IMG/VR virus record: IMGVR_UViG_3300045988_106519
Coordinates: 1 to 64,000 of that record
Length of the DNA: 64,000 bases
DNA from: a virus
Strand: one strand, 5' to 3'
In this document: positions 1 to 56,121 of the stretch, one piece after another
How positions within the stretch are numbered: position 1 is the stretch's first letter
Layout of the letters: each line of letters starts with the position of its first letter
Position numbers and translations under genes: made by a program
The notes under the pieces: model-generated
What the model saw: the letters and a program-made list of their open reading frames with translations, nothing else
What the model was told of the DNA's origin: nothing
The model's database searches: none

Positions 1-3000
1 GTAGAGCCTTGAGACTTATGAACAGTCATGGCATAGCCAAAGTCAATGGTCTTAGCTTGAAGAAGGTTGTGATTACTGTCCTCAATATTATCGTTGACAA
101 AAAGGAAGTTATCAATGAAATTGATTCTCTGATAAATCTTAGCTTTAGCATCTCTACCAACAGCATGTTTAGCTTCAGCCCAAAGCATTTTCTTCTCATT
201 AGCAAGCTGTATAGCTGCTTGAAGGTTAGAAGGATTGCTCTTGATGTCAATGAAGTTAAAGGTGTCAATATTACCTAAAGAATCCTCAAGTGTAAGAGGA
301 ATAACCTCCATAGTAACAGCAGTACCATCATTAAGGTTTGTTGTTATTTTATGAGATTTGTCTACCTTAGACACTTTGTAAGACTCAGAGTTGATGAAAC
401 GGTAAGACTTTGTTTTCCATTCATATCCCCAGTTGTTATAACCAGTCATAGGCTCACCTATTTGTGGGATAGGAGAAGTGTAGCCAAGGAGTTCTCTGAC
501 TTGATTGTTATAAGCAGATACAGCCTTGTTAGTGAAAGCAAGAATCCTAAAGTAGTTAGAGTTATGCTTCAAACCTTTGACATAATGAGCAACAACATTG
601 TTGATTTCGTCCTGATGATTAGGAGAGATATAGGCAACACCTTCACCCTTATCATTAAAGGATGAAATACCAGATAGAGGATTACCATTACGAAGTTCAG
701 TAGCTTCCTTTAGGATAGCATTATCATCAGTACGCTCAACTTGAGTAAGAGTAATGACTTTACCCTCACCATTGCGGAAGACCTTTGATATTTTATCCTC
801 ACCTACAGGAGCAAGTTGTGCAGAGTCTCCTACATAAATAATCTTAAGGTCATTCTGTTTGGCAATGTTGTTAAGAATACCATAATTCTCCTCATTAATC
901 ATTGACGCCTCATCAATAATAACTGTAGTGCCAGGAGTAATATCAGCATCCTTCAGTACATTCACTAAATTGCGTGCATTGTAGGTATTACTTTTAGAAT
1001 CAACTTCAACACTGATGCCAAATACTTTGTTAAGAGTAGCAGCCTTGAAACCAGCCTTAGAAACACGTTCATTAAGAACAGCAGCAGCCTTATTAGTAGT
1101 GGCACAGAAGACCACAGGACGATACTGTTTTCTACCTTTCTGAGCAATCATTTCCATAAGAGAAGTCTTGCCAGTGCCAGCATAGCCAGAGAGAGTCATA
1201 GAAGTTTCATTGGACTTCATGAATCTATCCATTTCATTAAGAGCATCTATTTGCTGAGCATTAGGCTTGAAAGGAGCTTTAACCTTAGTGCCATCAGCAA
1301 ATGTAAAGTCTTGAGGTACAGGCTTACCACTATGCTCCTGCTTAGGTCCAATGTCATTAACAAGGTCATAGTCAACAGATTCCTGCTTAATAAGATCTGT
1401 TTCATCTTTCAGCTGAGAAGAAGACATAGAATTAATGAATCTTTGTGCTTGATTCTCAACATCATCCATAATATTATTTCCCATAGACTCATCCTCAAAC
1501 TTAGCAAAACAGTCTATTACAGCTAAGGAACCATCAGGTTGTTTAATAACATTCTCTGGACGAATATCAGTAACAAGATAACCATCCTTGGTATATTCAG
1601 CATTAATGCCTTTACCCTTAGACAATGTGAATCCAAGAGTATTAATCATATAATTCTGAATTTCTTGAAGAGTAGGAATGTTATCACTATCTTCAATTAA
1701 TGGTTGCTCAATAATAAGACTAATACCCTTATCTGATGTACCAATCTTTTTCAGAGTCATGGCTGTTGATGGAAATGCTACATTATGTATAGCAATTCTA
1801 TCGAGAAGAGCCTTTATATTTTGATAATGGTTGGGAGAGACATTCTTTATAACAACTCCTTTCTTTTGGTCTATCCATACTTTTGACTCTGTACCATGCA
1901 AACTCTGGTCATTGAAAACCTCATCATAATAATCATTAGGCTCATATATGAGCTGATGATTTTTCTCTGCCCAATCTAAGAGTTGGCGTTGCTGTCTTGC
2001 AGCTTCTTCATAGCCTCTTTCTCGTAGGCTCTTGCCTTCATTTGTCTTTCCTTCATTTTCTCTATGATACTTTTGTTCTCCTTCTTGAAGGCTTCTGTAG
2101 ATCTGTAAGAATAGTCTTCCTGCTGATTTGATTGCTTTGTCATATTTCACAAGTTTTTTATTTTCTAAACGCTGATTTGTCTGATTTATTGTGTTATTAG
2201 CTACTTCTTTTCTGAGTTGGCTCTTGATACCATTATAACGCATGTAGGTATCAATGTCAAAGGCATTAAGAGCCTTGTCAAGAGCATTCATTGAACGTTG
2301 ATAATAAGTGTCAGAGGTATGGATACCCAAGAGAGACTTAAAAGCATCAAGAATCCTTGACCAGAAAGACTTGTTAGCTTTGGTTTGCTTATCAATCTCT
2401 TGAATCTTATCTCTGAAGACAGGGTTAGCAAGTTCAGCAACAAACTCAAAGGCATCAACAATACCTCTTTCACCTTTAAGGAGAGGATTGTTTTTGAGGT
2501 CTTGGTAAAGAGAGCTAATCTCTGTACGGAACTCCTGCAAAGCTTCAGGTCTCTTCCAATTCTCTGTTTTATTAGAAAGAGCATACATAGAAAGAGCATG
2601 CAGAAGTTCATGAAGAATAATAGGAGCCTTTTTATTTGTTAAAGTATTGTTTTCAAAGAAGGATTTTTTGAAGATAAGAGAATTGCTATCAGTATATCTA
2701 CCAACAATACCAAAAGGAAGAGTTTCATTAAAAGAAACTTCAATACCTAAGTCCTTAGCAATACTAAAGACTTTATCAGCCAATGCCTTAGAAGTTCTGT
2801 CATCGTTGAACCTGTTGTACAACTCCTGAACCTTAGAAATGGTATAAGTTTGATTGGCAGTAATATCAAGATTAAGCTTTTTGACATCCCTCATAGAACC
2901 AATGTTGTCAAACTCATTAAAGAAATCATCTTTATCATAGTTAGCTTGTTCTACAGGTCGTTTAACAGAAAGCACATAGTTGCCCATGGCATTTCTGTAA

Positions 3001-3305
3001 TGGACAATAGCAGACTGAGGAAAGAACCTTGATGCTTCTTTCCTTGCTGCTTGAAGTTCACTAAGAGACTTGAACTCTTGTGGAGTATTGTACATTTTTC
3101 CCCATAGTTCTCTTACAGACTTACCAGACTCTTGATACTGTGTATTACCAAGTTGAGCTTGGATATAAACATCTGTAGGAAAGAGAGTTTCATTACCAGT
3201 CTCTAACCAATACTTGTGAGTGATGAGTTCAAGGGTATTGTCAGCAAGATTATTACGTGCTGCAAGTGCCTTGAACTCTTTACTACTTTTATTTACACAT
3301 CCCAT
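1..3305 (-). CDS. Large polyvalent-type protein: N-terminal zincin-like HExxH domain plus C-terminal SF1 (RecD/Dda/Pif1-like) helicase; 3' end runs off the window
   Basis: Hand translation of the minus frame. ATG at 3305 (MGCVNKSSKEFKALAARNN...); stop-free in every stretch I translated (3305 to ~2283 and 300-1), the helicase motifs below lie in the same frame, and no minus-strand track ORF interrupts that frame. It is not in the ORF track because there is no stop in the window. Motifs: APIILHELLHALS at ~2598-2612; Walker A SGYAGTGKTS at ~1164-1190; motif II VIIDEASM at ~900-923; motif VI TVHKSQGS at 3-26. Confidence 0.8.
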   Translation of the reverse strand, partial: MGCVNKSSKEFKALAARNNLADNTLELITHKYWLETGNETLFPTDVYIQAQLGNTQYQESGKSVRELWGKMYNTPQEFKSLSELQAARKEASRFFPQSAIVHYRNAMGNYVLSVKRPVEQANYDKDDFFNEFDNIGSMRDVKKLNLDITANQTYTISKVQELYNRFNDDRTSKALADKVFSIAKDLGIEVSFNETLPFGIVGRYTDSNSLIFKKSFFENNTLTNKKAPIILHELLHALSMYALSNKTENWKRPEALQEFRTEISSLYQDLKNNPLLKGERGIVDAFEFVAELANPVFRDKIQEIDKQTKANKSFWSRILDAFKSLLGIHTSDTYYQRSMNALDKALNAFDIDTYMRYNGIKSQLRKEVANNTINQTNQRLENKKLVKYDKAIKSAGRLFLQIYRSLQEGEQKYHRENEGKTNEGKSLRERGYEEAARQQRQLLDWAEKNHQLIYEPNDYYDEVFNDQSLHGTESKVWIDQKKGVVIKNVSPNHYQNIKALLDRIAIHNVAFPSTAMTLKKIGTSDKGISLIIEQPLIEDSDNIPTLQEIQNYMINTLGFTLSKGKGINAEYTKDGYLVTDIRPENVIKQPDGSLAVIDCFAKFEDESMGNNIMDDVENQAQRFINSMSSSQLKDETDLIKQESVDYDLVNDIGPKQEHSGKPVPQDFTFADGTKVKAPFKPNAQQIDALNEMDRFMKSNETSMTLSGYAGTGKTSLMEMIAQKGRKQYRPVVFCATTNKAAAVLNERVSKAGFKAATLNKVFGISVEVDSKSNTYNARNLVNVLKDADITPGTTVIIDEASMINEENYGILNNIAKQNDLKIIYVGDSAQLAPVGEDKISKVFRNGEGKVITLTQVERTDDNAILKEATELRNGNPLSGISSFNDKGEGVAYISPNHQDEINNVVAHYVKGLKHNSNYFRILAFTNKAVSAYNNQVRELLGYTSPIPQIGEPMTGYNNWGYEWKTKSYRFINSESYKVSKVDKSHKITTNLNDGTAVTMEVIPLTLEDSLGNIDTFNFIDIKSNPSNLQAAIQLANEKKMLWAEAKHAVGRDAKAKIYQRINFIDNFLFVNDNIEDSNHNLLQAKTIDFGYAMTVHKSQGS

Positions 3306-3337
3306 AAATGTTATGTTTTACTATTTAAAATTAATGG

Positions 3338-3345
3338 CAAAGATA
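3338..3345 (-). promoter_or_regulatory. Bacteroidota-type -7 box TATCTTTG upstream of the helicase-fusion gene
   Basis: Minus strand reads TTTATCTTTGCCATT about 33 nt upstream of the ATG at 3305. Matches the TAnnTTTG consensus. Confidence 0.3.
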
Positions 3346-3408
3346 AAGAAATTAATTATATGGTTGAGGGAGTTAAGGGATAAGGTTAGAAGATGTTACT
3401 GATTTTGT

Positions 3409-4293
3409 TCAGTAAACAAAAGATAATCCCATTTCCTTGAATTTATCCTCTAAAGAGGTAGCAATCTCTCTTGCCATAGGATGGGCATCTTTAGCACATC
3501 TTCTGTAGAAGAAATTACACCAAGCACTTCCAAAGCCACAAGAGATAAGTTCGGACTTAACAGATAGAGGAAGAACTTCTCTTGCTTGTTGAGGTACTAA
3601 ATATTCTCGTACCATAGTTAAATAGGTTTCTTCAGCTTTACACATTGCATAGAACCATTCATAATCCATCCAATTATCATATCCCCACATAGGTGGAAAT
3701 TCATGATCCTTAGTATAAGTACCTTCTTTAATTGAATCTACCCAATTAGGAATAATGAAAGTTACTTCATTATTAAATCTATCCTTATTGTATGCACAAT
3801 ACCTTGTTGATTCAGCCAAATGACTAAGAGTGACATGAGTTCTGAACTCATCCATTATTCCTCTATTAGTAATAAAATGTACTGTATATCTTTTAGGATA
3901 GAATTTATTATCTTCTTCAGTAAAATAGTTTTTAATACTAGGAAACTGTTTAATAATATTTAAATAATATCTATAATTAGTTGTAATATACATTGTTTTA
4001 TCTTCACAATTACATTTAATCCAGATACTATTAAACATTTTTTCTGAAAATAAAGCATGTATAAATCCTTGGAAATTTGATGCTTTCATTTTAAGATGTA
4101 TTGTGCCAAATTCAAGAGGGCGAGCATGGTCTTTTCTCTCAAGCATATCTACAAATTTCTCATAGGAATCATCTGTAATTTTATCCTCAGATTTATAACA
4201 CACACGTCCACATCTTTCAATGAACTGTTTAATACCTTTAAGAGAAAAATCTGTTTGTTCAAGGATTTCAAAACTTTGCTTAACTAATTTCAT
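3409..4293 (-). CDS. thyX: FAD-dependent thymidylate synthase ThyX
   Basis: 294 aa. GRVCYKS near the N-terminus and a ThyX-like motif FRTHVTLSHLAESTRY (RHRxxSxxxxSxRY type). Confidence 0.8.
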   Translation of the reverse strand: MKLVKQSFEILEQTDFSLKGIKQFIERCGRVCYKSEDKITDDSYEKFVDMLERKDHARPLEFGTIHLKMKASNFQGFIHALFSEKMFNSIWIKCNCEDKTMYITTNYRYYLNIIKQFPSIKNYFTEEDNKFYPKRYTVHFITNRGIMDEFRTHVTLSHLAESTRYCAYNKDRFNNEVTFIIPNWVDSIKEGTYTKDHEFPPMWGYDNWMDYEWFYAMCKAEETYLTMVREYLVPQQAREVLPLSVKSELISCGFGSAWCNFFYRRCAKDAHPMAREIATSLEDKFKEMGLSFVY

Positions 4294-24793: not shown

Positions 24794-26356
24794 CATTTGT
24801 TATCATGGAAGTTCTTTATCTTCCATTTCTATAGTTTATGTATTATACTATAGTTCAGACTATCTCTTTATAGACCACTAAATGTTGGTACATATAGGTC
24901 TATATCCTGCACTCTTGGTGATTCATCCTCTTCAACACCACTTGGTAAGAGGGTATTCACTAGTCGTTGTTCCTCCATAATATTTCTACTATGCTTGGAT
25001 AAGGGTTACCATATAATAACTATGGTTTTCCCAGATTCACAGGATTTATTCAGGACCTCTGGTAAAATACATATATTATCTTATCTTATACTTAGTACAT
25101 TCACACATATAAGGTTCTATATTAGATTTCATGTGACGAAAACTTTTAGCTTTAATATATAGAGTATGGTTTTTGCATATAGTTGTTTCGATATTAAACT
25201 TCTCTAATAAGAAGATTTGAAACTTTTGAAGATCTTCTATACTAAAACAATTAGTTGCAAGTTGACCTCCACAATTAGCTTTACTACCATCATCCATAAA
25301 CATATAAGCCAATGATTGCCAAGTAAAATTATTAAAAAGTTCAATAGGAATCCTTTTTACTCTATTCACATAGAATTGATTATATATCTCATTAAATGCA
25401 GGATTGGCAGGAAAATCTACCCAATAGGACTTATATTTCTTTCCAGTCCTAACATCTAACTTTGATATGGAAACATAAGTATGAGGATTGAGATTAGATA
25501 ACTTATCAGCAATATAATAGGAATATTCTTTTTGTTTTTCACCATGTGCTGTAGACAATCTTGCATTTTTATTTTTGCATTCCATGCTTCCATCACCCAT
25601 CATGATTCCTAATATTATTTCTAAGTTATCTTGTGTAAGAGGGTTAAGTTCATTCTCCCTAAAACTCTTTCTGAAGTAGCCATGTTTCACTCTGTGACTG
25701 TAGATACCATCAGAAGACATATCAAGAGCTTCACCTATTTCTCTATCTCCAAGACCTTGATTAAAAAGTTCTTCAAACTTTTCATTATCAATTTTAGAGA
25801 CTTTGTCATAAGTAAATTGAGACTTGACACCCTTATTCTTTCTATGAAACATGATATTGCCTGCTGTTACACCAAATAACTCTGCAATCTCTGTATCCAT
25901 ATATCCTTCTTGAGCTAATGACATTGCTTTGTCTATATCTTCTTTAGACATTTTTGCATCATAAGCTCCCTTTATATTATTTTCCTTTTTGAATTTTGTT
26001 AATGTTGCAACAGATACATTAAGAAGTCTACTTATTTCAATACTTGATTTTCCTCCATCCAGCATTTGTTTTATTAATGCTGGATTTCTGTTAACTTCTG
26101 ATTGCCAAAAGTTAACAGGAAGTCCAAGTTTATGTCTTCTTCTTTCTATTGTTTTTCTGCTACAACCTAATTCTTTGGCTATTTTACTATCACTTAATCC
26201 TTGATTATAAAGGATTTGAAATCTATCCATATCAATACATACACTTTTACCCATATCTTTATTTTTTATTACAAAGGTATAAGGCACTTTTGGTATATGT
26301 TTTTGTGTAAAATTGGTTCTAAGTTAATCTAATAAATGTATTTATTTTTATGTTTA
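24794..26356 (-). mobile_element. Group I intron interrupting the helicase gene
   Basis: Exon 1 ends ...CAG GAT (a U before the 5' splice site). The intron ends ...ACAAATG (terminal G) before CCT GGT. The core 3' of the endonuclease ORF carries R-like AACAACGACTAGTG (24958-24971) and S-like AAGAGATAGTCTGAAC (24853-24868) elements. Confidence 0.7.
25076..26287 (-). CDS. Intron-encoded LAGLIDADG homing endonuclease with four N-terminal HTH repeats
   Basis: Two LAGLIDADG motifs (LEIILGIMMGDGSM and LAYMFMDDGSK). Four repeats of the type LYNQGLSDSKIAKELGCSRKTIERRRHKLG. Confidence 0.8.
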   Translation of the reverse strand: MPYTFVIKNKDMGKSVCIDMDRFQILYNQGLSDSKIAKELGCSRKTIERRRHKLGLPVNFWQSEVNRNPALIKQMLDGGKSSIEISRLLNVSVATLTKFKKENNIKGAYDAKMSKEDIDKAMSLAQEGYMDTEIAELFGVTAGNIMFHRKNKGVKSQFTYDKVSKIDNEKFEELFNQGLGDREIGEALDMSSDGIYSHRVKHGYFRKSFRENELNPLTQDNLEIILGIMMGDGSMECKNKNARLSTAHGEKQKEYSYYIADKLSNLNPHTYVSISKLDVRTGKKYKSYWVDFPANPAFNEIYNQFYVNRVKRIPIELFNNFTWQSLAYMFMDDGSKANCGGQLATNCFSIEDLQKFQIFLLEKFNIETTICKNHTLYIKAKSFRHMKSNIEPYMCECTKYKIR

Positions 26357-30398: not shown

Positions 30399-31619
30399 TT
30401 ATTTCTTTAAGAAACTTTGAAGTTCGGTAAGAGAATTGACAGTATGAATAGAATTAGGATTGAAATCCTTTATCATATCTTCCAATATCTCCTGCTCTCT
30501 AGTGTTCTTGTAGAAAGGCATAATGATAACAGGAGATTTATGTCTTAAAGCACGTCCACATCTTTGCACACTACATACCTCAGACGAGGAATAATTGGCA
30601 AAGATAGCATATTTGCAATCAACAAGATTAGCATTCTCATTGAGAATATTAACAGAAGTGATATGATTAATCTTCTTATCATTGAAATTCTTGTATATTA
30701 ATTCAGAGTTAGGATTCTTAGAGTGTATGCAATACTTGCCAAGAGATTCAGCCTGCTCTATAGTCTTACAAAAAGTAAGAGTACGCTCATTAGCAAGATT
30801 TGAAAGTATAGCTAGGACTATATTGTTTTTAAGATTGGCAAGATACTTAATACGTTCACCACATGAGAAAAGCCATTTGTTTTTGGTATATTCTTGATGA
30901 GTGCGCATAAAAGAGTTCTTTTGAAACAGAATCTGAGAGTTCATGTCATTAAGTTTCTGACGTTGAGTGCAAGAGATAATGGCATGTACTTTCATCTTAC
31001 GATAGCTCCAAAGCTTAGAGAAAGGACCATGATAGAGGGGACCTTTAGCCTTAGGATTAATCTCTATGAACTCTGTGGGATGAACATTATCAAGTTCAAG
31101 AGGAAAGAGAATAATCTGAGGTTCTGGAAGCACTCCATCCTTAATAGCATCAGTAATATTGCATAGTACTGTTTGAGCATGATATTCATACTGTAAATAC
31201 AGCTTTAGCTTTTTGGGGATTGTAGCACTAAGACCAATAACATTTCCAAATGAGATAGTATGAAAGAGGTCATGTCTGAGGTCACTGTTGAGGTGATGGC
31301 ATTCATCCATGATGATAATGTCATAATACTTATCAGCATGCTTATGAAGTGACTCATAACATTCAATAATAAGATTAGCATTACCCTTAATGCCTCCCCA
31401 TTTAGCCAATTCATCTTTCCAAGTTTCCTTATGAACAGTTTTTGCTACAAGTAGAAGTATAGAAACTTCAGATTTATCCTTGTAAGTAGTTTCTATAAGA
31501 TGATTTGTCATTCGTATAGAAATATAACTCTTACCATAGCCAGTAGGAAGTTCAACTAAGGTAAAGTTGGACTTGCTTAATGTTGTAAGGCATTGAGAAT
31601 AAGCTTCTTCTCTTGTCAT
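30399..31619 (-). CDS. SF2 DEAD/DEAH-box helicase
   Basis: LPTGYGKSY (motif I), IIMDECHHL (motif II), QRCGRALR (motif VI). Confidence 0.8.
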   Translation of the reverse strand: MTREEAYSQCLTTLSKSNFTLVELPTGYGKSYISIRMTNHLIETTYKDKSEVSILLLVAKTVHKETWKDELAKWGGIKGNANLIIECYESLHKHADKYYDIIIMDECHHLNSDLRHDLFHTISFGNVIGLSATIPKKLKLYLQYEYHAQTVLCNITDAIKDGVLPEPQIILFPLELDNVHPTEFIEINPKAKGPLYHGPFSKLWSYRKMKVHAIISCTQRQKLNDMNSQILFQKNSFMRTHQEYTKNKWLFSCGERIKYLANLKNNIVLAILSNLANERTLTFCKTIEQAESLGKYCIHSKNPNSELIYKNFNDKKINHITSVNILNENANLVDCKYAIFANYSSSEVCSVQRCGRALRHKSPVIIMPFYKNTREQEILEDMIKDFNPNSIHTVNSLTELQSFLKK

Positions 31620-31663
31620 TTTATTTTGAAATTTAAGAATACCATATTTCAGGTATGTTGTTA

Positions 31664-31822
31664 TCAGAATGTTGATTCATGTGCTTCGAGTGATGAAAGA
31701 TAACTATCAGCTTCCTCGTTAAGGAAATAATCTTCTATCTCCTTTGTAGGAAGAGTATCTACCATAGCCTCAAGGAATAATTTTTCCTCAGAAGGATCAT
31801 AATTGTTGAAATGTGTTACCAT
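31664..31822 (-). CDS. hypothetical small acidic protein (52 aa)
   Basis: Hand-found ORF MVTHFNNYDPSEEKLFLEAMVDTLPTKEIEDYF... Confidence 0.3.
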   Translation of the reverse strand: MVTHFNNYDPSEEKLFLEAMVDTLPTKEIEDYFLNEEADSYLSSLEAHESTF

Positions 31823-31895
31823 AATTGTTTGGAATTTAAGTTAATTATTAAATATGATGAATGTATGTTAGTAAGACATACAATGAATATACAAA

Positions 31896-31933
31896 AATGA
31901 AAAAATCCTCCATGTCTCACGACAGAGAGGATT
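31896..31933 (-). terminator. Intrinsic terminator after the tRNA locus
   Basis: Minus strand reads AATCCTC-TCTGTCGTGAGACATG-GAGGATT followed by TTTTTCATTTTT. An inner GTC/GAC stem carries a GTGA (GNRA) loop. Confidence 0.5.
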
Positions 31934-31993
31934 AAAACTTATTAATCACATTTTAAACTACAAATAACTATTATACCTAAATTATGACTTGAG

Positions 31994-32037
31994 TACTCCC
32001 TATTGGGCTTGAACCAATGACACCAGGCTTAGTATAG
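31994..32037 (-). tRNA. 3' half of a split tRNA (anticodon-stem 3' strand, variable loop, T-arm, acceptor 3' strand)
   Basis: Minus strand reads CTATACTAA-GCCTG-GTGTC-ATTGG-TTCAAGC-CCAAT-AGGGAGT-A. GCCTG and AGGGAGT pair with CAGGT and GCTCCCT of the 5' half at 32799-32837. Confidence 0.6.
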
Positions 32038-32111
32038 TGGTTGATATGGGACTCAAACCCATACTCTTCCCTTTAGGAGAGGGATGCTTTATTCAATTAA
32101 GCTAATCAACC
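32038..32111 (-). tRNA. tRNA-Arg (anticodon CCT)
   Basis: Hand-folded cloverleaf: GGTTGAT-TA-GCTT-AATTGAATA-AAGC-A-TCCCT-CTCCTAA-AGGGA-AGAGT-ATGGG-TTTGAGT-CCCAT-ATCAACC-A. All stems are Watson-Crick paired. Confidence 0.85.
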
Positions 32112-32710
32112 ATTTTTGCTTTGCCATAATAAGCACTTTTTCCTCTTGGTGCATTTTTATTTCTAGAACCAAAGTTTTTTGTTAATGAATGACAGTTAGG
32201 ACATAATACTTGCAAGTTACTTTCTATATTATTTTTAGAATCCCCATCTATGTGGTGAATCTGCAATGGAATTTTATTTGTATATGGATTCACTTCACCC
32301 CAACCACATTTTTCACATTTGTAATTATGTTTTTGAAGCAAGTAATTCCTAACGAATGTACTGCAACTATAACCATTTGTTCCATCTATATGTCCTTCTT
32401 TCCATTCTTTAATACGTTGTTCTTTTTTATATTTTACTGCACATTCCTCACTACAAAATAATCCTGTGGAACCAGGATATTTAGCAAAAACTTTCCCACA
32501 ATATTTACAAATTCTCGTACTTATTTTTCCTTTATTAAATGTCTCTGATGGATTTATTGTTCTTCTTTTAGGCAGATTTATACCAAGTCTTTGAGCAGCT
32601 TTTCTGACTGCATGACCTGAGACATTATACATCTTTCCAATTTCATCATAACTTTTTTGTTCTTTATATATTAAATTGAACAAATTATCCTTTTCTGTTT
32701 TCCAATCCAT
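32102..32710 (-). CDS. HNH homing-type endonuclease with N-terminal HTH
   Basis: IHHIDGDSKNNIESNLQVLCPNCHS (HNH core); Cys-rich zinc motifs; N-terminal YDEIGKMYNVSGHAVRKAAQRLGI. The last 10 nt overlap the tRNA-Arg 5' end. Confidence 0.85.
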   Translation of the reverse strand: MDWKTEKDNLFNLIYKEQKSYDEIGKMYNVSGHAVRKAAQRLGINLPKRRTINPSETFNKGKISTRICKYCGKVFAKYPGSTGLFCSEECAVKYKKEQRIKEWKEGHIDGTNGYSCSTFVRNYLLQKHNYKCEKCGWGEVNPYTNKIPLQIHHIDGDSKNNIESNLQVLCPNCHSLTKNFGSRNKNAPRGKSAYYGKAKMVD

Positions 32711-32732
32711 TTGAACTTATATTTTATATCTA

Positions 32733-32740
32733 CAAAGATA
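32733..32740 (-). promoter_or_regulatory. -7 box TATCTTTG upstream of the HNH gene
   Basis: Minus strand reads AAGTATCTTTGTAGATA about 25 nt upstream of the ATG at 32710. The octamer is identical to those at 3338 and 53982. Confidence 0.3.
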
Positions 32741-32798
32741 CTTAATACTAAGTTCAATTATTCTTATATAACAAAAGGTCTTATTTATTATAATATTA

Positions 32799-32837
32799 TT
32801 ACTAAACCTGTGCTCTATCCAACTGAGCTAAGGGAGC
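32799..32837 (-). tRNA. 5' half of a split tRNA (acceptor 5' strand, D-arm, anticodon-stem 5' strand, loop)
   Basis: Minus strand reads GCTCCCT-TA-GCTC-AGTTGGATA-GAGC-A-CAGGT-TTAGTAA, and no T-arm follows it. The joined anticodon would be AGT or ACT depending on the junction. Confidence 0.6.
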
Positions 32838-32838
32838 A

Positions 32839-32872
32839 TAAAAACTTCTACTGTTCTCACGAATGGTAGAAG
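32839..32872 (-). terminator. Hairpin plus T-run just upstream of the split tRNA
   Basis: Minus strand reads CTTCTAC-CATTCGTGAGAACA-GTAGAAG-TTTTTAT. An inner TTC/GAA stem carries a GTGA loop. Confidence 0.45.
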
Positions 32873-33307
32873 TAAACTAAAAACATTTTCAACCTAACAT
32901 TTTAATTATAATTCAATCTACAAAGAACTATTGCAAAGTTATACTGTAAAATAGATAATGCAAAACATATAACCATGAGACTAAGAACGTCTTAATGGAA
33001 ATATGAGGTTTGCTTAGGCTTGACCTTTTCAATAACGAAGAAGGTGGCCTTGCGTTGAATGATGTGCCTAAAACCAAGTTTAAAGCACTGAAACCAACTT
33101 CGGGTGCACATCATGCCATACTCATGAATGTATGGGAGAAGAGAGATGTAATGAAGTTTGTAGAAAGTGATATATCTTTTAGTTCTTGGTATTGCTGTAG
33201 TATTTTGAGAAGTCCTCGAACTTTACTGTATGGGTAGAAGGGTTGTAGATACAACGTGCTATAAGCTGGGTGTTTGATTTAGATACATTGAACATAATAT
33301 ATTAGTT

Positions 33308-54725: not shown

Positions 54726-55910
54726 CTATTTGGATTTATGATAGATAAGCTTCTCTATATAAGCAATAACCTTTTCATTGGCTTTATTGATATTGGTATA
54801 ATCCTTTTGTATATAGATGTCAGTAATACTCATATCTGATACATGGTTCAATGCTTCATGTATAGTATACTTATCTATACCAAGCCTGTTTCTTGCTATT
54901 GATGCCCAAGTATGTCTGGCAGAATAGAAATCAAAATGAGGAATACTCAAGGTGTCTGCAATTATATACAGTCCTTTATTTATATGTTTGTTGAAATTAG
55001 CTGCATTGCTATACTTCTTATAGAAGTTAAACACTCTTGAGTCTCCTTTATATTTATCAAAAAGAGGTTTTATTATATTAGGTACTGCTATTTCAATATG
55101 TGCATTATCTATTCTTCTATCTCTTGTCTTTGCTCTGTCATAAGCAAGTACACCATTACTATATGATGTACATTCATATAGATCAACAGAGTTCATACCT
55201 ATAAGACAGAATGATAAAATATAGCAATCCCTTGCCATTCCAACTCTTCTTGTTCCATGAAAGTTAAATAGTTTAATTAGGTTATCAACACTGATAATTC
55301 TATTCTTTGTCATTGATACACTCTTAGGAATGATAAAGCTATTAAATGGATTATTGGTTATTACCTTGTTATCATCCATATTATATTCTCTTATAGCCTC
55401 ATTGAATATATGACGCATACAACCTAAGTATAAAGACTGTGCTCTTGGATGTCCAGTAAGATAATCTTTATAGTTGTTGAGAAGATTATAATTAATATCA
55501 GAGAATAAAAGTGTGTCACTTTTTAGAAATCTGTATAAAGAATTAAGCATAATAGAGTAGTTGCCTTTTCCTTTATTATTTGATTTCTCAACCCACTTTC
55601 TTGTATATTCAAAAAAGTCCAGTGTCTTGACATTACCTGTTAATTGAGAATATATCCATTCAATATCAGCATCTTTATTTCCCAAGCTAGTCTCTATTTC
55701 ATATAACCTATTCTTTAAAGTATTTATAGTGTCTTCAATATTTCTTTTAAGACTATCAGACTTTATCTTTCCTTGTTTTGTTAGGTCACACTCCTTTATA
55801 ACAATATTTGTATGGATTCTCTTTCTTATTCCTTTATGAGATAGTGTTATTGAAACTTTCCTTGTCTTATCTTTTTTAGGTTCTTCTATTTTATATGTGA
55901 TTGTAGCCAT
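54726..55910 (-). CDS. int: Tyrosine recombinase / phage integrase (Bacteroidota type)
   Basis: 394 aa. C-terminal catalytic region with SARHTWASIA (H-x-x-R) and ITDIYIQ (Tyr). Adjacent to a tRNA-derived sequence. Confidence 0.8.
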   Translation of the reverse strand: MATITYKIEEPKKDKTRKVSITLSHKGIRKRIHTNIVIKECDLTKQGKIKSDSLKRNIEDTINTLKNRLYEIETSLGNKDADIEWIYSQLTGNVKTLDFFEYTRKWVEKSNNKGKGNYSIMLNSLYRFLKSDTLLFSDINYNLLNNYKDYLTGHPRAQSLYLGCMRHIFNEAIREYNMDDNKVITNNPFNSFIIPKSVSMTKNRIISVDNLIKLFNFHGTRRVGMARDCYILSFCLIGMNSVDLYECTSYSNGVLAYDRAKTRDRRIDNAHIEIAVPNIIKPLFDKYKGDSRVFNFYKKYSNAANFNKHINKGLYIIADTLSIPHFDFYSARHTWASIARNRLGIDKYTIHEALNHVSDMSITDIYIQKDYTNINKANEKVIAYIEKLIYHKSK

Positions 55911-56017: not shown

Positions 56018-56092
56018 GTTTCAATAGCTCAGTTGGATTAGAGCAACAGCCTTCTAAGCTGTGGGTCTTGGGTTCGAACCCCAACGGAATCA
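56018..56092 (+). tRNA. tRNA-Arg(TCT)-derived sequence lacking a pairing 5' acceptor strand; probable attP core
   Basis: TA-GCTC-AGTTGGATTA-GAGC-A-ACAGC-CTTCTAA-GCTGT-GGGTC-TTGGG-TTCGAAC-CCCAA-CGGAATC-A folds well. The 7 nt in the 5' acceptor position (GTTTCAA) pair at only 4 of 7 positions with CGGAATC. Confidence 0.5.
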
Positions 56093-56121
56093 CAACGAAA
56101 AAATGCTTCAAATTTGATTGT

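Follow-up and report, generated by a model that had tools for sequence, protein, structure and literature searches.

How a transfer RNA (tRNA) gene came to be divided in a phage genome, with a protein gene and a second, complete tRNA gene lodged between its halves, is the question raised by positions 31,994–32,837 (minus strand) of the viral record IMGVR_UViG_3300045988_106519. The stretch analysed here, the window, comprises positions 1–64,000 of that record. The interrupted gene is referred to as the resident tRNA, the complete tRNA inside it as the spare, and L-numbers denote the contigs with which the locus was compared. The original prediction, made from the letters of the window, had proposed a tRNA gene split in its anticodon loop by an HNH endonuclease plus tRNA-Arg(CCT) cassette, and had offered three explanations: a homing cassette that killed a phage tRNA, a novel intron or processing arrangement, and a tRNA made from halves. 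In our view the insert is likely to be a mobile cassette built around a homing endonuclease, with its own substitute for the tRNA gene it breaks.

Direct reading of the minus strand gave GCTCCCTTAGCTCAGTTGGATAGAGCACAGGTTT at 32837–32804 as the 5′ part of the resident tRNA and CTAAGCCTGGTGTCATTGGTTCAAGCCCAATAGGGAGTA at 32032–31994 as its 3′ part. Written by arm, the 5′ part reads GCTCCCT-TA-GCTC-AGTTGGATA-GAGC-A-CAGGT-TT, from position 1 to U33, and the 3′ part CTAA-GCCTG-GTGTC-ATTGG-TTCAAGC-CCAAT-AGGGAGT-A, from position 35 to the discriminator base:

32804–32837, minus strand: resident tRNA-Arg(CCT) 5′ fragment, positions 1–33 (acceptor 5′ strand, D arm, anticodon-stem 5′ strand, U32, U33); same as the intact alleles, blastn homology stopping at 32804
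31994–32032, minus strand: resident tRNA-Arg(CCT) 3′ fragment, positions 35–73 (C35, U36, A37, A38, anticodon-stem 3′ strand, variable loop, T arm, acceptor 3′ strand, discriminator); same as the intact alleles except at 32028

Across the halves, the acceptor stem was paired at 7/7 positions (six Watson-Crick pairs and G1·U72) and the anticodon stem at 5/5 (four Watson-Crick pairs and one G·U), as had been predicted. Every join of the two halves was folded into a cloverleaf by ARAGORN. With introns allowed, the program made a single intron-type call in the window, c[31993,32837], in which 770 nt intervene.

The same gene was found as an uninterrupted 74-nt sequence in six of the seven IMG/VR phage contigs that matched a 25-nt pattern from the 5′ part (L001–L005, L007), and eight further intact alleles came from a metagenome scan (L119, L136, L165, L176, L188, L196, L197, L211). 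In that scan, made with a 27-nt 5′-half pattern, 10 of 120 matches began with the GCTCC acceptor, nine of these ten being from these phages; the remaining matches were mostly tRNA-Arg genes with different acceptor stems, probably bacterial. Chance pairing of the halves is excluded, since related contigs hold both parts as one uninterrupted tRNA; the halves do not come from different tRNA genes. The 5′ fragment is identical to positions 1–33 of the intact alleles L001–L005, L007, L136, L176 and others, and the intact alleles read ...CAGGT TTCCTAA ACCTG..., that is, tRNA-Arg(CCT) with the loop TTCCTAA. The two parts are one tRNA gene, tRNA-Arg(CCT), cut at its anticodon.

In blastn alignments, homology to the intact alleles ended at 32804 (U33) and restarted at 32032. 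Because just one allele base, C34, was left unmatched between these points, the 771 nt from 32803 to 32033 replace the first anticodon base. The uninterrupted alleles thus bore out the proposed split and fixed the insertion between U33 and position 35. Of the half boundaries drawn originally, the division into two tRNA parts stood, but the loop bases 32803–32799 and 32037–32033 turned out to belong to the insertion. The AGU or ACU anticodon first read for the joined halves came from these cassette bases taken as loop bases, and was corrected to the CCU of the intact alleles. The anticodon-stem G·U pair stems from A39G at 32028, which is private to the window and L088; position 39 is A in nine other occupied alleles, as in the intact gene. 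The exact 3′-half pattern had no IMG/VR match because it includes this private change. Among GenBank phages, no close relative of the locus was found. One IMG/VR contig (L006, 6583–6609) ended 2 nt past its pattern match, at ...CAGGTTT, which is the cassette junction; the end could be an assembly break from a mixed empty/occupied population, or just a limit of the stored data. On two metagenomic contigs (L116, L126), tRNA-like 5′ parts (...GAGCACAGGTTT) passed through AGGAAACCTG into non-tRNA sequence without a T arm; they seem to be tRNA-Arg genes of environmental contigs that were truncated or disrupted in some other way.

The insert consists, in order, of a leader, an open reading frame (ORF) for an HNH protein, the complete spare tRNA and a short spacer:

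32033–32803, minus strand: inserted cassette, 771 nt, in place of the resident C34 (1 nt between the homology blocks in every intact relative)
32711–32803, minus strand: cassette leader, 93 nt, AT-rich, with a promoter-like box and an inverted repeat
32102–32710, minus strand: HNH ORF, 202 amino acids (aa), with an N-terminal three-helix helix-turn-helix (HTH), a zinc ribbon and a C-terminal HNH domain (Pfam, PHROG, AlphaFold2)
32038–32111, minus strand: spare tRNA-Arg(CCT), unlike the resident gene in sequence (ARAGORN; Rfam tRNA, 66.1 bits)
32033–32037, minus strand: spacer CTATA, 5 nt, from the discriminator base of the spare to the restart of resident homology (direct reading; blastn)

The intact alleles show that the split gene was also tRNA-Arg(CCT), and so the embedded tRNA is a substitute for the gene lost to the insertion. 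The insert encodes no integrase, only the HNH protein and the tRNA, and neither junction rebuilds the resident gene; a tRNA-targeting integrative element (integrase plus att duplication) was ruled out on these grounds.

Occupied and empty alleles could be compared directly. The exact HNH protein was indexed in 32 blocks of a public assembly collection and was carried by 24/24 contigs read. In the ten occupied loci that were fetched (L088–L097) the cassette was nearly invariant, and it was present on two upstream haplotypes, ~84% identical to each other, with intermediates between them. Occupied loci of the L089 type were 94–95% identical upstream and 98–99% identical downstream to the intact L003, L005 and L007. 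In a more distant phage lineage, the 400-nt flanks of the occupied L152 and the intact L176 were 99.75% identical on both sides. L152 and the window were identical at 836/844 positions over the split tRNA and cassette (8 differences), their flanks being 65–90% identical with divergence setting in within 3 nt of the tRNA ends; in L088, the element and 600-nt flanks were identical to those of the window. The polymorphism between empty and occupied thus concerns one exact site (L152/L176; L089-type against L003/L007), with a second pair in L008/L099, and the cassette is mobile. Both an identity island that stops at the ends of the tRNA gene and the occurrence of empty as well as occupied sites in near-isogenic genomes are traces typical of a homing element, and it was the first explanation listed in the original prediction, the homing cassette, that these patterns favoured. 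The occupied L094 differs at C6A and G67T, giving A6:U67 where the other cassette-bearing tRNA allele has C6:G67. Since the intact L119 already has A6:U67, the cassette must have entered a second tRNA allele, and the L094 change was rejected as a case of selection on the halves after the split. The shared homology seems to come down, at its minimum, to the conserved tRNA halves (34 and 39 nt).

In at least six further lineages, diverged cassettes, with HNH proteins 58–81% identical to that of the window, lie within or beside what is left of a second tRNA gene. In L008, the HNH gene (69% identical) is followed directly by tRNA-Arg(CCT), and both lie between the halves of a very different tRNA (ACTCTTA...); in L099, an empty-site relative, that tRNA is intact and is again tRNA-Arg(CCT). 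The same layout was found in the following loci:

L225–227: HNH 71% identical
L228: HNH 81% identical; the contig stops inside the spare
L233/234: HNH 66% identical; a different kind of phage, with pRha/ANT genes
L236: HNH 65% identical
L237: HNH 71% identical

No empty-site relatives of these five were found, and we infer the identity of their split genes. In the same-layout lineages the insert begins at or just after position 33 (1–3 bases earlier in L233), the 3′ side keeps (C)TAA and the stem, and the anticodon was lost in every case; L008 and L013 lost more anticodon-loop bases than the window. L013, a 185-kb phage with an HNH protein 49% identical, carries the order 5′ half, spare tRNA-Ala(TGC), HNH gene, 3′ half, and its split tRNA shares its D arm and anticodon stem with phage tRNA-Ala(TGC) genes and carries G3:U70. 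The halves are fully complementary in the window, L008, L236 and L013, and show one anticodon-stem mismatch in L233. In L227 the anticodon stem is paired at 3/5 positions and the acceptor stem contains four G·U pairs; in L235 only a T-arm and acceptor 3′ remnant of the resident gene is left. Two loci are rearranged descendants of the cassette: L229 (1332–2146) carries a spare-type tRNA-Arg(CCT) before the HNH gene and, after it, a 3′ remnant of the resident type, and L231 (1328–2136) has an intact resident-type tRNA upstream and a spare cut to its 3′ third downstream. Exactly one intact tRNA-Arg(CCT) accompanied the HNH gene in every complete locus examined, as expected if the two copies are redundant. 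These comparisons indicate that the resident copy is dispensable and decays given time.

The spare of the window carries the arginine identity elements A20, C35 and A73, and the spare of L008 scored higher still in Rfam (69.1 bits). An exact 37-mer of the window spare was absent from IMG/VR. The seven complete spares form one homologous family:

Window, 32111–32038
L008, 3595–3668
L233, 2101–2174
L236, 2098–2171
L237, 2095–2168
L227, 1070–1143
L235, 2095–2168

The G19:C56 elbow pair is near-universal in tRNAs. It was present in all target tRNAs and in none of the seven spares, where the 19:56 tertiary pair covaries (A:U in the window; U:A in L008; C:G in L233, L236, L237, L227 and L235). Because such covariation is a signature of selection on tRNA folding, the spares look functional. 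The odd 19:56 pair could be an immunity mark against the element's own endonuclease or against a host nuclease, although the wider HNH-tRNA family does not show it. As such a mark in the wider HNH-tRNA family, a non-canonical T-loop was rejected, TTC being present in 21 of 26 scorable adjacent tRNAs, like the background; a T-loop mark confined to the Arg(CCT) subfamily is possible. Among the arginine codons of the 27 window ORFs of at least 200 codons, AGA accounted for 50% and AGG for 17%, a usage that fits a phage with both a tRNA-Arg(TCT) (56018–56093) and a tRNA-Arg(CCT), and tRNA-Arg(CCU) probably matters to the phage.

The HNH ORF matched Pfam PF01844 (E=7.5e-6) and PHROG HNH families. 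H152, H153, N165, N172 and the cysteines C132/C135/C170/C173 were invariant in 32 homologues. The AlphaFold2 model (pLDDT 91.5) showed an N-terminal HTH, a zinc ribbon and the HNH domain. Sequence and fold searches of the PDB returned domain-level matches only, to the HNH domains of McrA and Cap5, HTH regulators and the YacG zinc ribbon. As modelled, the combination of HTH, zinc ribbon and HNH has the modular build typical of a homing endonuclease. Homologues numbered 1137 at E<=1e-20. Because their ORFs are intact (188–254 aa, mostly ~200) and the catalytic residues are invariant down to ~51% identity, the protein is under purifying selection. Of 78 homologue loci, inspected with as much as 3 kb of flank to either side, 68 had a tRNA; in 43 of the 78, the start of a tRNA lay no more than 30 nt from the HNH stop and in many cases overlapped it. 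In the published crAss-like phage cr116_1, a free-standing member of the family lies between tRNA-Leu(TAA) and tRNA-Arg(TCT). Elsewhere in phage tRNA clusters, ROOL RNAs (274–280 bits; L059 3636–4231, L060 4307–4899) and a drum RNA (53.5 bits; L059 730–856) were located no more than ~1–2 kb from HNH genes.

The window phage is crAss-like, judging from a large terminase 53% identical to that of the Crassvirales phage cr116_1, and its hosts are presumably Bacteroidota. TAnnTTTG is the Bacteroidota −7 promoter consensus, and the cassette leader contains a box of this kind within an inverted repeat:

32733–32740, minus strand: promoter-like box TATCTTTG, fitting TAnnTTTG, 22 nt upstream of the HNH ATG
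32711–32757, minus strand: leader hairpin with arms TTGAACTTA (32757–32749) and TAAGTTCAA (32719–32711)

The box had been noted in the original prediction, and gained in credibility from its conserved distance in diverged leaders, 20–26 nt upstream of the ATG in 10 of 12. The hairpin surrounds the box and its 3′ arm adjoins the HNH start codon. In the window its computed stability was −14.9 kcal/mol (RNAfold; z=−3.9), which 0/200 shuffles equalled. An inverted repeat of 9–14 nt brackets the box in 8/9 lineages tested, its 3′ arm abutting or covering the ATG, and the arms differ in compensatory fashion (TTGAACTTA/TAAGTTCAA in the window, TATAATCGAACTAA/TTAGTTCGATTATG in L235, ATGAACCTAT/ATAGGTTCAT in L229). 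Overall, the leader hairpin is a moderately supported feature. At the other end, the HNH TAG stop (32104–32102) forms positions 8–10 of the spare, the last 10 nt of the ORF overlapping the tRNA, and in every lineage the ORF ends inside the spare (positions 4–6 in the others). The overlap was seen at 32102–32111 (minus strand) in the window, at 3595–3600 in L008, and in L233, L235, L236 and L237. Because the ORF ends inside the spare, a cut by RNase P at the 5′ end of the spare would yield a non-stop endonuclease mRNA, which, speculatively, may be a built-in limit on endonuclease dosage.

Taken as a homing cassette, the element would work as follows. In a relative that infects the same cell, the HNH enzyme would cut the uninterrupted tRNA-Arg(CCT) gene within or close to its anticodon, and repair would copy the occupied genome, with the tRNA halves and adjoining flanks serving as homology arms. 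The resident gene would then be a pseudogene and AGG would be decoded by the spare, which may be co-transcribed with the endonuclease mRNA and freed from it by RNase P together with 3′-end processing; neither the spare nor the disrupted site would be cut. Endonuclease expression is probably gated. The box lies within the leader hairpin, the 3′ arm of which masks the start codon, such that read-through transcripts would be poorly translated, and RNase P cleavage at the 5′ end of the spare would strip the stop codon from the endonuclease mRNA. Given the spare tRNA-Arg(CCU), the phage most likely loses nothing by the insertion.

Several observations weigh against this reading. We infer homing solely from population patterns, in phages known from metagenomes only, and the founding insertion would have required an illegitimate event, with C34 lost here and more bases lost in other lineages. 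Most split tRNAs still pair well, which was attributed to recent or repeated homing into fresh targets, selection on the halves being the alternative. The 15-mer AGGTTTCCTAAACCT is the only sequence common to the two confirmed targets, and the idea that it is the target, with the spare immune through a different anticodon stem, was weakened by its occurrence in the spares of L227 and L237; because of these two spares, the anticodon stem-loop alone cannot explain immunity. As to the leader, TAnnTTTG was not enriched in the window (90 found against 84.5 expected), the inverted repeat was weak in a simple permutation test on the window alone (214/1000), and it was absent in L236. Finally, the window is 64 kb of a roughly 115-kb genome, elsewhere in which another Arg(CCT) gene is possible.

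Of the other explanations, the one that survives best makes the endonuclease a passenger: the cassette would spread by homologous recombination and by selection for an advantageous spare, one that resists a host anticodon nuclease or better matches host modification enzymes, and the HNH protein would be inactive or irrelevant to spread. The identity island shows transfer, not its cause, and the spares do have an unusual elbow, never G19:C56, as well as anticodon stems mostly unlike those of their targets. Evasion of host tRNA-targeting defences by phage tRNAs is a known theme (PMC13096335). Against it, the intact HNH ORF and invariant catalytic residues point to purifying selection, and an advantageous tRNA could simply replace the resident gene through recombination in the flanks. 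Repeated insertion at the same anticodon-loop point of very different target tRNAs further argues for a site-specific break, and the wider HNH family lies beside many different tRNAs, as homing endonucleases should. On balance we regard a passenger endonuclease as unlikely.

Less probable still is that the halves keep a role at the RNA level, their tRNA-like fold recruiting RNase P or RNase Z for processing or stability of the mRNA or spare, or acting as a decoy for host nucleases. It is the pairing of the halves, complete in four lineages and nearly so in L233, that speaks for such a role, and 3/3 substitutions in the halves of occupied alleles keep the pairing (A39G giving U·G; C6A with G67T giving A:U). 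However, A6:U67 pre-exists in the intact L119 and was hence inherited, not selected after the split, and A39G is a single change confined to the window and L088, whose elements and 600-nt flanks are identical. Halves are mismatched, truncated or missing in L227, L235, L229 and L231, where the HNH gene and one tRNA-Arg(CCT) are intact, and under homing the halves are simply the recently functional gene of the recipient.

That a tRNA is rebuilt from the halves by RNA-level excision, whether through a degenerate group I intron or a new pathway of RNase P/Z and a ligase, is highly improbable, since C34 is on neither side of the insert and no colinear join therefore yields CCU. All joins of the halves gave ACU or AGU anticodons in ARAGORN, and the AGU join is without C35, which arginyl-tRNA synthetase (ArgRS) requires; in L008 and L013 more of the loop has gone. 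The anticodon loop is the classical site of group I introns in bacterial tRNAs, and the insert does follow a U (U33), but at its 3′ junction it ends in A (32033, ...CTATA), where a group I intron ends in G. An Rfam scan of 31500–33300 at E<=10 recovered the spare tRNA and, apart from it, three weak and unrelated matches; neither a group I nor a group II intron was among them, and there is no room for a ribozyme core because the non-coding RNA of the insert amounts to just 93 + 5 nt. Ribozyme core, terminal G and functional joined tRNA are thus all lacking, in agreement with the original view that this is not a textbook group I intron; the novel intron or processing arrangement entertained alongside it found no support, given the missing C34. 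The tRNA made from halves fared no better, the halves being decayed or partly lost in other lineages: a split tRNA of the Nanoarchaeum type is contradicted by halves that cannot give CCU (the bulge-helix-bulge motif itself was not searched for), and a bulge-helix-bulge splicing endonuclease is not known from bacteria.

Apparent group I introns did occur around distant relatives of the HNH protein, which is a point for an intron origin:

L074, L075, L078, L081 and L085, ~2589–3460: tRNA-Leu(UAA) interrupted at the classical U34/A35 position by an apparent group I intron; the HNH ORF in it is a distant relative and has a TAnnTTTG box of its own
L083, 2711–3467: the same arrangement

In L074 and L083, tRNA-Leu(UAA) is interrupted after U34, the insert ends in G, and ~200 nt of conserved non-coding RNA follow the HNH ORF. 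By this splice-site anatomy they look like group I introns, though an Rfam scan of the related loci at the gathering threshold called only tRNAs, ROOL and drum RNAs, and no Intron_gpI at either locus. The L074 HNH ORF has in-frame TGA codons, which suggests that this phage is recoded. An ORF-less 523-nt insertion in a phage tRNA-Arg(TCT) (L012, 1936–2459), placed after U36 and ending in G, is likewise consistent with a group I intron. Many intron calls made by ARAGORN (option -i) in tRNA clusters were chimeras of neighbouring tRNAs and were filtered out, and the candidates in L011 and L016 were inspected and discarded.

Returning to the homing cassette with its own replacement tRNA, the closest characterised system is SegB of phage T4, which is reported to recognise tRNA-gene sequence, cut relatives that lack it and spread with neighbouring tRNA genes (PMC2330249). 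Both are phage homing endonuclease genes among tRNA genes; SegB is a GIY-YIG enzyme, free-standing between genes, that recognises a T-psi-C stem-loop motif. Unlike SegB, the cassette encodes an HNH enzyme, sits inside a tRNA gene at the anticodon, destroys that gene and has a same-anticodon replacement fused to the 3′ end of the endonuclease gene. Group I introns with endonuclease ORFs occupy the anticodon loops of bacterial tRNAs such as tRNA-Leu(UAA), tRNA-Arg(CCU) of Agrobacterium and tRNA-Ile of Azoarcus, and apparent phage examples are found here in L074 and L083 with an HNH ORF and in L012 without one. The cassette resembles them in its anticodon-loop site, its related HNH family (L074) and the fact that the insertion is made harmless. 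Whereas introns mend the tRNA at the RNA level by self-splicing, the cassette has no detectable ribozyme, has lost the anticodon and is compensated at the gene level by the spare.

A further parallel is found in the mobE insertion that splits nrdA in phage Aeh1, and in the mitochondrial atp6 element of Allomyces, which brings a foreign copy of the 3′ end of the gene. As in fractured genes, a free-standing endonuclease gene splits a useful gene whose function is kept, and as in Allomyces, a replacement segment is supplied and the old one is left as a pseudogene. In fractured genes, an endonuclease gene lies between the parts of a split gene that is healed by split inteins (PMC2677866). The split genes of all these cases are protein-coding and are healed by trans-splicing, subunit assembly or partial replacement, whereas the cassette supplies a complete RNA gene and the old gene is abandoned. 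The expression of T4 endonucleases (I-TevI and others; work of Gott, Shub, Belfort, Gibb and Edgell) is reportedly gated: the start is concealed in read-through transcripts, and translatable mRNA comes from a nested promoter. The cassette is similar in nesting a promoter-like box, TATCTTTG, in a start-occluding hairpin (32757–32711), and differs in that the promoter is of Bacteroidota type, not T4 late, and that a Shine-Dalgarno element plays no part; its gating is read from sequence only. A link between the diversity of tRNA repertoires and the HNH genes of phage tRNA clusters has been reported (PMC6409571). Full-text literature searches, whose coverage is incomplete and leaves an absence unproven, turned up no earlier account of a cassette that places an endonuclease gene inside a tRNA anticodon loop together with a spare of the same anticodon. 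Homing endonuclease elements as such are already known; what is new here is that the cost of the element is offset by gene replacement, not by splicing.

Selfish endonucleases are known to avoid harm by lying between genes or in self-splicing introns and inteins. The cassette would represent a third route, for an RNA gene, in which the target is destroyed and a working substitute is delivered in the same cassette. More tentatively, at somewhat less than even odds in our judgement, it exemplifies a general and so far undescribed "bring-your-own-replacement" class of homing, in which an endonuclease-spare fusion invades the anticodon loop of a resident isoacceptor free of cost. Such a class would cover at least two identities (Arg-CCU in at least seven lineages, Ala-UGC in the 185-kb phage) and would drive the turnover of phage tRNA alleles, with immunity through 19:56 and dosage control as possible components. 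It may explain wholesale swaps of tRNA alleles between diverged genomes of the abundant crAss-like gut phages, the conserved tRNA providing short, portable homology arms, and it raises the testable idea that nuclease avoidance can leave its trace in phage tRNAs as unusual tertiary pairs. Standard tRNA annotation overlooks the broken gene and lists only the spare. The natural pairs of empty and occupied alleles, together with a compact 202-aa enzyme, make cleavage of the tRNA gene testable.

Two terminator-like hairpins are found on either side of the locus:

32845–32872, minus strand: terminator-like hairpin (CTTCTAC..GTGA tetraloop..GTAGAAG) followed by a T-run, abutting the resident tRNA 5′ end and outside the cassette
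31900–31933, minus strand: terminator-like hairpin (AATCCTC..GTGA..GAGGATT and T-run) in the downstream context (direct reading)

The upstream hairpin is conserved at both intact and occupied alleles, and the downstream one is also located downstream of the intact L003, L005 and L007. Hairpins capped by GTGA (GNRA-type) flank homologous loci too (L136, L229, L231, L236). A hairpin touching the 5′ end of a tRNA would be odd if termination were efficient. Elsewhere in the window, a 403-aa ORF (25076–26287, minus strand) with matches to HTH-type DNA-binding proteins and a C-terminal LAGLIDADG match (phrog_11023, E=3.3e-18) could represent another mobile endonuclease gene of this genome. An integrase-like ORF (54726–55910, minus strand; phrog_1, E=4.8e-15), unexpected in a crAss-like genome, adjoins the tRNA-Arg(TCT) gene at 56018–56093 (plus strand).

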